Assembly: GCA_026023565.1 (NCBI GenBank)
Contig: JAPETS010000006.1
Span: 62,001 to 126,000 of the forward strand
DNA length: 64,000 nucleotides
Direction: 5' to 3'
From: Cirrosporium novae-zelandiae
Taxonomy: Eukaryota
Shown here: in pieces, positions 9,754-14,297 of the stretch
Layout: each line of letters begins with the position of its first letter
Numbering within the stretch: position 1 is the first letter of the stretch
Position numbers and translations under genes: made by a program
The notes under the pieces: model-generated
Told to the model about the DNA's origin: nothing
Databases searched by the model: none
Seen by the model: the letters and a program-made list of their open reading frames with translations, nothing else

Positions 9754-10530
9754 TTAAGGTCGAGGTGCTCGATCAGCAGGAGGTATCCTTCTCCCTTCTG
9801 TATCTCTCATTAAACCCTTGCCCTTCCCGTTTCCGCCTTTTCTTCGATCATCTTCACTATTCCAAGCTGAATCATCAGAGCTTTCGTCTACAGGCTGAGG
9901 TCTTCGTCTATCGTGTTTTAACATAGCAGAGCGTTCATCATCATCGTCGTCTTCATCTAGCAGCTCGCCACCAGCTGTGTCGTGATCTGGTGCTTGTATC
10001 CACTCTCTTGGGACAACACATGGAAGTGCCACTCCAATGCTTGCGGCGCGGTTTAACCAGCTCGGAGCGGGCCTTGAAGTCAATCTTTCGCAGAGATAGG
10101 ATGTGAAGTGGTTGCAATTGTTTGTCAATAGGTTATAGTTTGTTCCCAGAAATTTTCGTGAGCATTCAGCGATAATCTCCTCAATCTCTGAGTCCGGCCT
10201 TATCGTAAACCCGTGCAATATCTCACAGCGAAATGTACCTCCGGGAGGGGCTTGTCTTGGCTTGGTCCAATATACGCCTGAGGCATTAGGCTTGTTGTGT
10301 CCACCATAAGCATATTCTCTTTCGCCAATTACGACACCGGAGTGAAGGAGGGAGGACCCAACAACCCAGAGGACAGAGGAGATGCGACCCGGAGGAAGAA
10401 GGTCATAGGCATTTATGAGGATTTCGGTTTTTTGTAGGGAGAGTGTGGTTCGGTGACTTATATGGCCGGAAGAGTGACGAGTTGATGAGGGTCGGTGAGA
10501 ATGCTTCTTAGAATTTTGAGCCATACTCAT
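9754..10530 (-). CDS. PPPDE/DeSI family peptidase (deSUMOylase/deubiquitinase-like)
   Basis: Motifs INAYDL, LLHSGVV..EYAYGG (catalytic His) and YNLLTNNCNHF (catalytic Cys). Intronless; start at ATG 10530 or 10524. Confidence 0.92.
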   Translation of the reverse strand: MSMAQNSKKHSHRPSSTRHSSGHISHRTTLSLQKTEILINAYDLLPPGRISSVLWVVGSSLLHSGVVIGEREYAYGGHNKPNASGVYWTKPRQAPPGGTFRCEILHGFTIRPDSEIEEIIAECSRKFLGTNYNLLTNNCNHFTSYLCERLTSRPAPSWLNRAASIGVALPCVVPREWIQAPDHDTAGGELLDEDDDDDERSAMLKHDRRRPQPVDESSDDSAWNSEDDRRKGGNGKGKGLMRDTEGRRIPPADRAPRP

Positions 10531-11324
10531 AGGGGATGAGGAGCAGAATGAAGTGGGTGAGACAATCAAAGGTGCCGAGAGGCTGCTTGCATATTCAGGG
10601 TGTCGTTGCTCAGAAGGCGGAGAAGAGTATAATAGCTTTCAGATGGATAATGGGACAGCAACAGCATATAGGTCTATAAAGATTTCAGAAATGTCAATTC
10701 TTCAAGCAGAAGGTGAAAGACGGCGTAGAAGTGAAATTGTGTAAAATCCAGGTTGATTGTACAGCTGGTGGTGAGGCTATTAAAAGGATTATTCTTGTAA
10801 TGGTCTGTTATTACTTGTGGCTGATCCGATACGGGAAAGAACCTCAGCAAGGCCGATAATTGAATGCAGGCAATCGATGTCGCATCCTTTGACCCAAACC
10901 GTCACAAGTAACTCGTTTAGGTTGCCGTCTAGTCTTCTCGGTCCAAGGTCCAAATGCCCCGCCCGAGAGATCTCACGTGATTTAACCGACTCATTTCCTC
11001 CCGACGCAGAATTTCGATAATTATTCTTGTTCCCACTTCACCTCACTCACAAAGTCTGTCCATTTTTTCATCAACTTCCCAGCAGGTCTTGTATCTGCAA
11101 ATAATCCAAGGAAGAAATTGCTAGGGAGATTACATCTTGTTGCCCTCAAGACGTCTTCCCTTCGCCCCCTTTCCTTTATCTTCACTTCTTCATCTCTCTT
11201 TCCCCCTCTTGCAGCCGGTACTGCAACTTCAGTCAATGCTACTGGCTGTCGCTTGCGATTATTAATTCTCCCAACCACCCTTTTCTATTCTTCAACTCGA
11301 TCCTACTCACAGAAAAGGAAGAAA

Positions 11325-13054
11325 ATGCCTCCAAAAAAGCAAGTTAAGGAAGAGAAAATTCCTCTCGGTCGGCCGGGGAACAATCGTACGTTGTTCGAAT
11401 TTTTCTCTTTTTTTTTGTTTCACAAAAACTTTGTGTGCCGAGCTAAAACTGAATTGCAGTGAAGAGTGGTATCGTATGTAGGAGATACCATGCACATCAA
11501 AGTAAAAATATCTTTGGCTAAGACAATCTTCTTCAGGTTGGCCTTGCAAACGTTGGGAAATCAACTCTCTTTCAAGCCATCACGAAATGTTCGCTGGGTA
11601 ATCCAGCTGTGAGTCTTATTGTTGCACCACTTCTAAAGGGTGGAGATGCTGATGTTATATTCTACAGAATTATCCTTACGCCACAATTGAACCTGAGGAA
11701 GCTCGGGTCATTGTGCCTGATGAAAGATTTGATTGGCTCTGTGAACACTATAAGCCAAAATCTCAAGTCCCAGCTAATCTCACTGTCTACGATATTGCTG
11801 GGCTTACACGAGGGGCTTCAACCGGAGCTGGTTTGGGAAACGCATTCTTGTCACACATTAGAGCAGTAGATGCAATTTTCCAGGTTGTACGTTCTTTCGA
11901 TGATGCTGAAATTACTCACGTCGAGGGTAATGTCGACCCTGTTCGGGATCTAGATATCATTAGTGAAGAGCTCCGGATCAAAGATATTGAATTCGTTGAG
12001 AAAGAGTTAGAGAATAAGAAAAAATTAACGCGGAGAGGGGGCCAGAGTTTGGAGATGAAAAAACTCAAAGAAGAAGAGGCTACAATTGAGAAAATCCTCG
12101 CATGGTTGCAGGATGGGAAGGATATAAGGAAAGGGAATTGGACCAAGAAAGAGGTAAGATTTGTTTCCCCCTAGTTCTCTATATGTTTCCTTCACCCCTT
12201 ATGCTTTCATGATGAATAAGAGCCTCTGGCTCGATCTATAACCCAGCTCGTCGACGACCTCATTCAATCTCACGTAAGAGGTCTTAATGAGATTAACTCC
12301 AACTCTGATATGCAATACTGCACTAAACCATTTTACAAAACTTATTTTGCTTTTTGGATCCATGGGAAGCTTACTTTTGTATATCAGATCGAAGTTATCA
12401 ATCCTCTCTTCCTGCTCACCGCCAAATCCGTAGTCTTCCTTATCAATCTGAGTGAGAAGGATTACATCCGACAAAAGAACAAGCACATTCCCAAAATCGC
12501 TGAATGGATAAAAACCAATGCCCCTGGTGATCCTATTATTCCAATATCGGTATCCTTCGAAGAGCGTTTGACCCAGTTTGGTGACGATGCTGCTGCAGAA
12601 GAGGAATGCAAAAAATTAAGTACGAAGTCTGCACTTCCCAAAATCATTACCACTATGCGGAAAGCTTTGGGTCTTGGAAGCTTTTTCACAACTGGTCCTG
12701 ATGAAGTACGGCAATGGACTATTCGAAATGGAACCAAAGCGCCACAAGCCGCTGGCGTTATCCATACAGGTATGTTTAAGTCCCACATCCTTTCATTGGG
12801 TTCTTTTGATTGATTTTTTCATTGTATAGATTTCGAGAAGACCTTCATCCAAGTTATTGTATACAACTACACTACGCTTAGGGAGTATGGCGACGAAGGC
12901 GCTGCTAAGGCAGCCGGGAAAATCATGACCAAAGGCAAAGGTATGGCTCCTATTCACCGCAAACATACTGGATCACAGCTTCTAACTATTAACAGACTAT
13001 GTTGTAGAGGATGGAGACATTCTTCTGATCAAGGCGGGAGCAGCGAAGGCTTAG
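11325..13054 (+). CDS. OLA1: Obg-like ATPase 1 (YchF family)
   Basis: Spliced reading MPPKK..LGRPGNNL/KSGI/VGLANVGKS (P-loop), YPYATI, DIAGL, GLGNAFLSHIRAVD, FFTTGPDEVRQWTI, KAPQAAGVIHTDFEK, TKGKDYVVEDGD. Six introns, with a 14-nt microexon at 11460-11473. Confidence 0.97.
12204..12313 (+). ncRNA. Intronic box C/D snoRNA, snR69-like (predicted guide for 25S rRNA Cm2948, yeast numbering)
   Basis: Lies in the 234-nt OLA1 intron (12154-12387). C box ATGATGA 12209-12215; D box CTGA 12305-12308. The guide TCTA(T)AACCCAGCTC 12235-12249 is antisense to the conserved LSU rRNA sequence GAGCUGGGUUUAGA and is followed by a D'-like TCGA at 12251-12254. Confidence 0.85.
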
Positions 13055-13255: not shown

Positions 13256-13996
13256 TTACAATCTCCTGGGCTTGGGGCTTCTTGATCCTCCAAACTTCAA
13301 CCGTGTAGAATCAGTAACCCTAGTTATTAAATGTCTAATCATTTTCCCCTCTTGTCCTAAAATGGCTTTTGTAGAAGCATCCCTACCAGCTCCGAAACCT
13401 CTAAACACAAGTTCCAGTTTGTTTATTTTCTCCTTAGCAATTATATTCCGTTCGGTTATGTTCTTGAGGAGAAAAGCAGTCAATTGGTATCCGGCATCAA
13501 AGCTGCCTCTTGCTGACTTTCGAAATCCAATCTCGCCAGCCGAAACGGATAGGATAGGTGCACGAGAAGGGCGAGTAAGTGTTAGATGTGTGTTATGTTT
13601 TGTGGAGTAAATGTTGAGATGGTGTGGTTCCGTGGTATCTTGTGTCTGATTGATAATGGCGTTGGACGAATTTCGAGGAGGTAACTGGGTGAGTGGAGCA
13701 TTTCTCATCAAGTCACTCATCGCCGTTCCTAGTCCGTTTGGTGAGCCTCGTTTTTGGACGGGGACGCTATCTCGCATGAAATCCAACACGTCATATATTC
13801 CCCGCCCTGTTCCGGTGGTAGTAGATGAAGCCATTGGTTTGCGCGCAGAGGGAGGTGATTTATCAGGGTCATCGTCGGCTCTCCAGCGGGGTGTAGAGGA
13901 GAAGGAGCGGAAGAACGAGGCTCGAGGATTGGAGAGTGTACGACATTGCCGACAGATTGGACTTCTCCACAACTGTCTTGTAGAAGTCGGGTTCAT
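13256..13996 (-). CDS. MRPS18: Mitochondrial ribosomal protein uS11m
   Basis: Arg/Ser-rich presequence (..RSFSST..) and an S11 domain: HLNIYSTKHNTHLTLT, SAGEIGFRK, GFGAGR, VTDSTRLKFGGSRSPKPRRL. Confidence 0.92.
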   Translation of the reverse strand: MNPTSTRQLWRSPICRQCRTLSNPRASFFRSFSSTPRWRADDDPDKSPPSARKPMASSTTTGTGRGIYDVLDFMRDSVPVQKRGSPNGLGTAMSDLMRNAPLTQLPPRNSSNAIINQTQDTTEPHHLNIYSTKHNTHLTLTRPSRAPILSVSAGEIGFRKSARGSFDAGYQLTAFLLKNITERNIIAKEKINKLELVFRGFGAGRDASTKAILGQEGKMIRHLITRVTDSTRLKFGGSRSPKPRRL

Positions 13997-14297
13997 GGTG
14001 AGCTTAAGCTTGTAATGAGGGGGGAGAAGGAAGTAGTTTGATATTACATGTAAATGCGATTAGCGAATTGTTGGTTTTCCAGGCTTCGGTTTCCCAAAAA
14101 GTTTTAGGCCGGCTTTTTCCGATTGCAAAAAGAGAGCGAGAGCCTTCCTCTACCAGATCTTTTGCGCCTTCCCTTCACTGCTCTGTACAACTTCCAATAA
14201 TTAATAGTTCTTTTCTTGACCGTCCCTTTCTCTACTATCTTCCTCTTCCAAATATTTCATTTATTCTTGCTGAAGAAGCTTTCCTCTAAAAAGTAGT

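Follow-up and report, generated by a model that had tools for sequence, protein, structure and literature searches.

A conserved, presequence-like extension upstream of the OLA1 start codon in Cirrosporium novae-zelandiae and other Pezizomycotina, probably read from a near-cognate codon

The open frame upstream of OLA1

Is the 5' leader of a fungal gene for OLA1 (Obg-like ATPase 1, YchF family) itself part of the coding sequence? The question is raised by a 64,000 nucleotide (nt) stretch of the genome of Cirrosporium novae-zelandiae (Xylobotryomycetes, Pezizomycotina; contig JAPETS010000006.1, positions 62,001 to 126,000, forward strand), the whole of which we call the window and whose own numbering is used below. 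OLA1 occupies positions 11325-13054 of its + strand in seven exons, separated by introns that are all GT...AG, and the spliced model is identical, residue for residue, to the 394 amino acid (aa) database protein P0004, an NCBI hypothetical protein from a C. novae-zelandiae metagenome-assembled genome (100% identity over exon 4). P0004 contains both of the Pfam domains by which an OLA1/YchF protein is recognized, MMR_HSR1 (PF01926, 3.1e-15) and YchF-GTPase_C (PF06071, 5e-34). Its annotated start is the methionine of the sequence MPPKK, so any N-terminal extension encoded further upstream is absent from the NCBI model of the window gene.

A first-pass annotation of the window had proposed such an extension, cryptic, initiated at a TTG rather than at an AUG and resembling a mitochondrial presequence. 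The local features on which it relied are all present in the sequence. The TTG at 11118-11120 stands in the A-rich context GGAAGAAA-TTG (A at -3) exactly 69 codons 5' of the ATG at 11325-11327 that begins MPPKK, there are no in-frame stops and no in-frame ATGs between the two, and the resulting 69-residue peptide has no Asp or Glu and ends ...STRSYSQKRKK, a terminus that includes the R-S-Y-S noted earlier. The frame is also open further 5', as had been pointed out, from 10986 onward (113 codons to the ATG, after an in-frame stop at 10983-10985), and the sole ATG within 10955-11324, at 11236, is in frame +1 and opens the short 9-codon upstream open reading frame (uORF) that had been recorded, whose stop is at 11263-11265.

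Could such a frame be open by chance, in a pyrimidine-rich 5' untranslated region whose C+T richness also gives the encoded peptide a presequence-like composition? The leader stretch in the window is 66% pyrimidine, which disfavors both stop codons and acidic codons, so the open frame of the window taken alone is unremarkable, and the other two frames of orthologous leaders are open for at least 57 codons in 18/50 and 19/50 loci (~37%). The open frame in the window is thus weak evidence by itself, and its significance rests on the comparison of orthologs.

Orthologous loci were gathered from metagenome contigs by means of the conserved exon 4 of OLA1, a query that is neutral with respect to the leader. 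The exon-4 pattern matched 586 stretches, 273 of these were confirmed, and the best 80 (protein identity 81-90%) were retained. This locus search replaced an earlier word search with a 158-aa open reading frame (ORF) as the query, which had returned three matches (ORFs of 86-277 aa) and was a biased sample. Four of the 80 contigs (L025, L044, L066 and L075) stop short of the start codon, and the remaining 76 show M-P/A-P/L-K-K. The set comprises 66 distinct sequences including the window, 50 of them with at least 600 nt upstream, and 64 extensions could be delimited (the short contigs L022 and L064 were excluded, and the start was assigned by hand in L029, L031 and L078). The median pairwise exon-4 DNA identity in this sample is 74%, that of third positions is 44%, and the sequences fall into 42-50 clusters at 85-90% identity.

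In this sample the frame that leads into OLA1 is open for at least 57 codons in all 50 of the distinct loci that have 600 nt or more of upstream sequence (median 90). Stops or frameshifts in orthologs had been named in the first-pass annotation as evidence that would count against the extension; the 64 distinct extensions have no in-frame stops, compared with 46 and 65 stops in the other two frames of the same DNA. Substitutions in 14 disjoint pairs number 78, 60 and 125 at codon positions 1, 2 and 3, respectively (chi-square p = 2.6e-6), and over the 180 nt that precede the start the counts are flat (86/89/68). Nine of the 15 gaps in these 14 pairs are multiples of three, which is weak evidence; indel phase over all pairs was dropped as evidence, since cancelling 1- and 2-nt gaps at 70-80% identity are alignment artefacts.

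The peptide alignment contains blocks conserved in every lineage, which in order are T-(T/S)-S, F-(S/T)-S and F-x-R-(S/P)-A-A-(G/S/R)-(T/S/P)-A-(F/I), followed often by L-L-x-C-T-V and then by (T)-R-x-(Y/F)-(A/S), a run of K/R and MPPKK. Its nearly invariant columns are written with many synonymous codons: the conserved Arg column (62/65) is encoded by CGT 16, CGC 15, CGA 14, AGA 10 and CGG 5 times, and a conserved Ala column (63/64) by GCG 22, GCA 17, GCT 16 and GCC 8 times, which shows selection on the amino acid. Taken with the stop counts and the codon periodicity, these columns indicate that the extension is coding in the orthologs. A chance open frame is already contradicted by the comparative data, in which this frame is open in 50/50 loci, its substitutions are periodic, its start codon is conserved (below) and a reading of the same DNA in the other frames gives 6-9 times as many acidic residues. 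We regard chance as extremely unlikely.

How widely is the extension distributed? A profile of the extension plus exon 1, built from the ortholog alignment and searched against representatives of 15 billion proteins, matched 376 cluster representatives at E <= 1e-3 and 162 at E <= 1e-10, and 143 of the 150 best matches listed have M-P/A-P/L-K-K after 14-279 in-frame residues with the same motifs. These matches are mostly ORF calls on fungal contigs and as such are biased toward open frames, so they were used for breadth alone. A single-sequence search for longer proteins returned the annotated 394-aa protein and three already known ORFs and nothing else. A word search for longer proteins gave 558 matches, and the named and spliced entries discussed here come from the 120 listed. 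Among these best 120 of 558 matches, at least 13 NCBI-named gene models contain the extension, namely those of Parastagonospora nodorum, Periconia digitata, Hortaea werneckii, Neofusicoccum parvum, Xylogone sp., Phlyctema vagabunda, Coleophoma cylindrospora, Rhynchosporium graminicola, Zalerion maritima, Aspergillus tanneri, Trichophyton verrucosum, Arthroderma uncinatum and Onygenales sp. The lineages checked, those of part of the named species, cover the Sordariomycetes, Dothideomycetes, Leotiomycetes and Eurotiomycetes, and the remaining species are assigned to the same four classes. With the Xylobotryomycetes, the extension is present in five classes of Pezizomycotina. The OLA1 models of other species either omit it or add arbitrary upstream sequence, in some cases 119-196 residues.

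The putative near-cognate start site

If the extension is translated, where does it begin? Conservation sets in at an ACG-type Thr column and there is none further upstream. At this aligned site the 64 distinct loci have ACG (52), ATA (6), ATT (4) or CTG (2), with a purine at -3 in 62 of the 64 (A 55, G 7). Elsewhere in the extensions ACG accounts for just 21 of 318 Thr codons, and in 15/64 loci the site is a tandem ACG ACG. The nearest in-frame stop upstream of it lies from 1 to 130 codons away (median 28.5, 60 loci), at 10 codons or fewer in 11/60 and 1-3 codons before the site in 6/60 (for example, TGA AAG ACG in L072), which is the pattern expected if everything upstream is non-coding. A conserved splice acceptor at this position was considered and rejected, as AG directly precedes the start in just 5/64 loci. 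The TTG at 11118 was thus not upheld as the start: the conserved site in the window is the ACG at 11151, 11 codons downstream, and the TTG is in the unconserved part of the frame. The TTG has a good context and may add a slightly longer form in C. novae-zelandiae. The features of the region in the window are as follows:

10986-11150, + strand: upstream continuation of the open frame, 55 codons, unconserved in the ortholog comparison and most likely 5' leader
11118-11120, + strand: TTG with A at -3, a possible extra species-specific start, unconserved (sequence and ortholog comparison)
11151-11153, + strand: putative near-cognate start ACG in the context CTCAAG-ACG-TCT, A at -3, 58 codons 5' of the ATG (from the alignment)
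11151-11324, + strand: candidate N-terminal extension of 58 codons, TSSLRPLSFIFTSSSLFPPLAAGTATSVNATGCRLRLLILPTTLFYSSTRSYSQKRKK, whose residue 1 would be Met if the ACG initiates (no stops in 64 loci; codon periodicity)
11181-11189, + strand: F-(S/T)-S motif, TTC ACT TCT (F in 58/64, S in 55/64; F11 nearly invariant)
11211-11225, + strand: A-A-(G/S/R)-(T/S/P)-A core, GCA GCC GGT ACT GCA (first two Ala columns 65/65 and 64/65; third Ala 63/64)
11236-11265, + strand: out-of-frame uORF, ATG plus 8 codons plus TAA, in a weak context (T at -3, C at +4; read from the sequence)
11298-11309, + strand: R-S-Y-S, a putative -3R processing motif (R 62/65, Y/F 65/65, A/S 60/65)

Each of the codons found at the site can also act as a start in yeast. 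In yeast ALA1, according to the accessible text of the report, every single-base variant of ATG except AAG and AGG can initiate, with ACG, CTG, TTG and ATT at about half of the activity of ATG and ATA at about a fifth (PMC2909995).

The leader downstream of the site is also strongly depleted of ATG, as would be needed if most ribosomes bypass a weak start and go on to the main ATG. The 64 extensions (10,503 nt) contain four ATGs in any frame, compared with 98 expected from base composition or 36.5 from dinucleotides, a depletion of ~10-25-fold, and 60 of the 64 are free of ATG altogether. As a control, 491 ATGs (418 of them out of frame) were counted in the coding exon 4 from 63 loci, where 476-541 are expected. 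The general idea of a non-AUG extension thus stands on the absence of stops in 64 loci, the codon periodicity, the conserved near-cognate start, the depletion of ATG and, as described below, the R-x-(Y/F)-(A/S) motif and the inclusion of the region in spliced cDNA-type sequences from relatives. Translation of the extension from this conserved site is, in our view, highly probable.

Might the extension instead be coding but begin at an AUG, supplied by an upstream spliced exon or by a different transcript? An in-frame ATG is present somewhere in the open upstream frame of 11 of 66 loci, and in 7 of the 13 NCBI models the extension begins with an in-frame Met that precedes the main one by 54-72 residues, so in some lineages an AUG replaces or supplements the near-cognate codon; some models, as noted above, add 119-196 upstream residues. 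As a general explanation we find this very improbable. In-frame ATGs are missing from the other 55 of 66 loci, the ACG/ATA/ATT/CTG column with its purine at -3 is exactly where conservation sets in, in-frame stops stand 1-3 codons upstream in six of 60 loci, the rarity of AG before the start leaves no conserved splice acceptor, and the complementary DNA (cDNA)-type sequences discussed next are collinear with the genome across the region.

At least 10 non-NCBI proteins, full or partial, fuse the extension to spliced OLA1, which can be recognized because they read GIVGLANVGKS... at the point where genomic ORFs enter the intron. Five of the spliced proteins (P0180, P0200, P0202, P0203 and P0206) are from contigs of 1.5-1.8 kb, which are mRNA-like, and four are "merc" entries without a contig record. 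Such cDNA-type proteins of relatives have 41-121 residues upstream of the main start. Three of them, P0180, P0173 and P0189, equal the translation of the genomic locus L069 across the extension and are spliced downstream, and each starts with a Met-Gly that is not in the genome, at -119, -94 and -55 codons, respectively. Template-switch oligonucleotides end in ...ATGGG, and we read the non-genomic Met-Gly as a 5' adapter artefact (ATG GG) that marks the ends of cDNAs. L069 has ACG ACG at -61/-60, so two of its three apparent 5' ends lie upstream of the start site and one lies downstream. A finding that all transcription starts are downstream of the extension had been put forward as a ground for rejecting it; on the adapter reading, in this relative they are not.

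Several smaller observations belong here. P0170, P0216 and P0200 likewise begin with MG, and if the adapter reading is right, MG starts of this kind in protein catalogues would point to 5' ends of cDNAs. The "merc" entry P0028, which has a complete extension and the N-terminus of OLA1, was dropped as an mRNA-derived copy, since beyond ...GKSTLF its sequence is no longer in the OLA1 frame (the entry is unspliced or chimeric); its sister entry P0170 carries on correctly in the OLA1 frame. A subgroup of loci (L026, L030, L041, L045, L046, L048, L050, L060, L065 and L069) has a second conserved ACG 14-24 codons before the ATG, located in S-C-T-V (TGC/TGT ACG GTY or CTC) with T at -3, which may reflect codon preference, a CpG effect or a minor start inside the extension.

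The presequence-like extension and its likely destination

The extensions are 47-76 codons long (median 54 in 64 loci) and are rich in Ser, Thr, Ala, Leu and Phe. Asp and Glu together make up 0.7% of their residues, versus 4.4% and 6.0% for the other frames of the same DNA; acidic residues are absent from 43 of the 64, and the mean number of Lys plus Arg is 8.2. The extension in the window has a net charge of +8. A motif of the form R.[YFL][AST] occurs within the last 20 residues in 58/64 loci, against 7 and 1 in the other frames, and in the alignment it forms columns before MPPKK that are R in 62/65, Y/F in 65/65 and A/S in 60/65. In the -3R pattern of cleavable presequences, as described in the available part of the source, R-X-(F/Y/I/L) is followed by S/A, where the mitochondrial processing peptidase (MPP) cuts at -2R and Icp55 then trims one destabilizing residue (PMC8847149). 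The R-x-(Y/F)-(A/S) of the extensions matches this MPP/Icp55 motif at the level of sequence pattern, and cleavage within TR-S-Y-S is predicted to leave SQKRKK-MPPKK..., that is, essentially full-length OLA1. A basic, nearly acid-free, S/T/A/L/F-rich extension that ends in this manner is most likely a mitochondrial presequence.

The arrangement that these features suggest is as follows: The 5' leader of the OLA1 mRNA would itself be coding, in this fungus and in Pezizomycotina generally. A minority of scanning ribosomes would start at the near-cognate codon (ACG 11151 in the window) and read 58 codons into the OLA1 ORF, and the majority would scan through the nearly ATG-free leader to the ATG at 11325, which is in a strong context, and make the 394-aa cytosolic OLA1. 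In the longer product the extension would most likely be a mitochondrial presequence of the cleavable kind: the MPP cut and the subsequent trimming by Icp55 would leave OLA1 of nearly full length (SQKRKK-MPPKK...) in the matrix, and a ribosome-binding ATPase of the YchF type could there act on mitoribosomes. One OLA1 gene probably supplies both the cytosol and the mitochondria in this way, to judge from the features above, and dual initiation on the OLA1 mRNA that includes mitochondrial targeting of the long form is, in our judgment, likely. The resemblance to a mitochondrial presequence claimed in the first-pass annotation held in part: the basic, acid-free composition and the -3R motif agree with it, and the test for amphipathicity gave it no support, as is described next.

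A number of observations weigh against this interpretation. The extensions do not exceed composition-matched shuffles in maximal helical hydrophobic moment (mean z 0.1; maximum in the window 0.34), so a classical amphipathic helix is not demonstrated. The A-A-x-x-A(F) core is far more conserved than is usual for presequences, and its T/S/P column is encoded by NCT in 62 of 65 sequences, position 1 being variable and CT at positions 2-3 being kept; together, these two features make a constraint on the DNA or RNA, or another function, possible. The window is among the four of 64 exceptions with an upstream ATG in the extension (11236, frame +1), although that uORF has T at -3 and C at +4, is only nine codons long and ends 60 nt upstream of the main ATG, so it probably costs little. 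The downstream 5' end at L069 means that alternative transcription starts may share in the choice of isoform. The orthologous loci, being from metagenome contigs, are not fully independent phylogenetically. Finally, we infer initiation at the ACG, the isoform ratio, import, cleavage and mitochondrial function from sequence.

The negative hydrophobic-moment test, the unusual conservation (for a targeting peptide) of the F-S/T-S and A-A-x-x-A-F motifs and the absence of any Pfam match in the extension would all suit a protein extension that is translated from the near-cognate codon but has some other destination or activity, such as membrane association, regulated degradation or altered ribosome binding. 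We nonetheless think this unlikely, since the composition is basic, hydroxylated and almost free of acidic residues, and since R-x-(Y/F)-(A/S) is found just before the mature N-terminus in 58/64 loci, a combination that in the accessible portion of PMC8847149 defines cleavable matrix presequences. In addition, no conserved motif like peroxisomal targeting signal 2 (PTS2) and no conserved hydrophobic signal-peptide core was seen in the alignment when judged by eye.

The nucleotide-level conservation bears on a different explanation, in which reading of the upstream frame is mainly a means of translational control, or the region is a DNA or RNA element that tunes the flow of ribosomes to the ATG, and any extended protein is a by-product. 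The NCT codons and the GCAG...CTGC within the core, the pyrimidine-rich leader and the one cDNA-type 5' end inside the extension are compatible with this, but a regulatory uORF need not remain in frame and free of stops up to the ATG in 64/64 loci, nor does it require an acid-free composition and a processing motif written with degenerate Arg and Ala codons. A stable RNA fold was sought at 11140-11335 and none was predicted (z = -0.61), so no structure that might enhance initiation is supported in the window. We therefore view a mainly regulatory role as quite improbable and retain the cleavable mitochondrial presequence as the preferred interpretation.

Two side observations concern the same DNA. 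The core reads GCR GCN RGN NCT GCN, and its GCAG...CTGC is a short inverted repeat. A scan for sigma-70 promoters and terminators was disregarded as inapplicable to a eukaryote.

Known dual-start systems and the surrounding genes

Does this arrangement resemble any known system? ALA1 of yeast uses two successive ACG codons, beside which the tandem ACG ACG of 15/64 OLA1 loci can be set. In yeast ALA1 (from ACG) and GRS1 (from TTG) the near-cognate extension directs the protein to mitochondria and the cytosolic form starts at the main AUG, as far as the text available goes (PMC2909995). OLA1 is like them in that one gene would have an in-frame upstream near-cognate start, with ACG the preferred codon in its leaders too. 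It differs in that it encodes a ribosome-associated YchF ATPase and not an aminoacyl-tRNA synthetase, and in that its putative extension is longer (47-76 codons) and has strongly conserved internal motifs.

Among other fungi, Wallace et al. 2020 (PMC7049704, accessible part) describe Cryptococcus ArgRS from AUU and LeuRS from ACG-AUU, make "DualNCC" and "DualAUG" predictions for Neurospora, and find that AUG and near-cognate starts interchange between lineages for fungal tRNA synthetases. Both patterns have counterparts here, in the weak upstream start in good context that is followed by a predicted targeting sequence and a strong AUG, and in the seven named species whose OLA1 extension starts with Met. 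OLA1 and YchF are unmentioned in the main text of that paper. A genome-wide screen by Monteuuis et al. 2019 for cryptic mitochondrial proteins from upstream near-cognate codons, with hundreds predicted (PMC6582344, as excerpted), has the same concept but is limited to S. cerevisiae; OLA1, YBR025C and YLF2 are absent from its main text, and its supplement may list yeast OLA1.

Conserved non-AUG extensions are also described, in the accessible sections of the respective reports, for Neurospora cpc-1 (Ivanov et al. 2017, PMC5487733) and for a fungal peroxisomal 6-phosphogluconate dehydrogenase made from a non-AUG start (PMC7214817). Like OLA1, these have Pezizomycotina-wide in-frame leaders with conserved near-cognate codons that were found by comparison, and they differ from it in being a transcription factor and a protein with a peroxisomal PTS2, respectively. 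OLA1 is not mentioned in PMC5487733, from which YchF is also absent, nor in the available text of PMC7214817.

In the literature searched, which leaves subscription journals mostly outside, no report was found of OLA1 or YchF with non-AUG initiation or an N-terminal targeting extension; OLA1 and non-AUG co-occur there, in the text accessible, only in an unrelated cancer study. Dual targeting of the ALA1/GRS1 type is thus well known, and OLA1 as a member of the class is new within that literature. The extension itself is partly in databases through automatic gene models, which give it no interpretation.

S. cerevisiae YLF2 is a mitochondrial paralogue of OLA1. Another YchF is included in the predicted mitochondrial proteome of Andalucia godoyi (PMC7050145, accessible part). 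These cases share with the present one a YchF-family protein inside mitochondria, and differ from it in that separate genes are involved, whereas in the present case the organellar copy would come from the cytosolic-type OLA1 gene itself. A more far-reaching proposal, which is possible but which we hold to be rather doubtful, is that filamentous ascomycetes obtain a mitochondrial YchF from the cytosolic-type OLA1 by way of an ACG-initiated presequence, and not just from a YLF2-like gene, and that the F-S-S...A-A-x-x-A-F core is dual-purpose. If so, the core would be in part an import signal and in part a nucleotide-level signal (promoter, start choice or RNA) that sets the cytosolic/mitochondrial ratio, and OLA1 would regulate cytosolic and mitochondrial ribosomes from one locus.

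Few P-loop ATPases are universally conserved, and OLA1/YchF is one of them; what it does in the cell is still under debate. If the conserved but unannotated mitochondrial isoform is real, that debate would have to take in a further compartment for an entire fungal subphylum, whose members include major model organisms, plant pathogens and industrial species. The OLA1 leader would then also be a clean and deeply conserved case of ACG initiation, in which the frame is open, substitutions are periodic by codon, the ACG is fixed, a purine stands at -3 and the leader is depleted of ATG. Start-site predictors could be trained on such a case, and gene models corrected by it.

The exons of OLA1 in the window, each of which is fixed by the agreement of the spliced model with P0004, are as follows:

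11325-11385, + strand: main ATG and exon 1 (MPPKKQVKEEKIPLGRPGNN)
11460-11473, + strand: exon 2, a 14-nt micro-exon
11537-11608, + strand: exon 3
11668-12153, + strand: exon 4, the query for orthologous loci
12388-12769, + strand: exon 5
12830-12940, + strand: exon 6
12996-13054, + strand: exon 7, with the stop TAG at 13052-13054

The micro-exon at 11460-11473 is TGAAGAGTGGTATC and encodes part of L-K-S-G-I; it is flanked by introns of 74 and 63 nt, and its splicing-in is confirmed by the annotated protein P0004. The first of these two introns is missing in many relatives, in which genomic ORFs read GRPGNNLKSGIV unbroken.

OLA1 has an ORF on either side. The one upstream, a long ORF at 9754-10638 on the minus strand (...LLPPGRISSVLWVVGSSLLHSGVVIGEREYAYGGH...NNCNHF...), is divergent and resembles a PPPDE/DeSI-type peptidase. 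Its likely ATG is ~620 nt from the ACG at 11151, so the intergenic promoter region is common to both genes. The one just downstream, at 13256-14059 on the minus strand, is convergent and has a long S/R-rich N-terminus (...HLTLTR...GFRKS...FGAGR...KFGGSRSPKPRRL); it resembles a ribosomal protein of the uS11 family, and may be the mitochondrial ribosomal protein.

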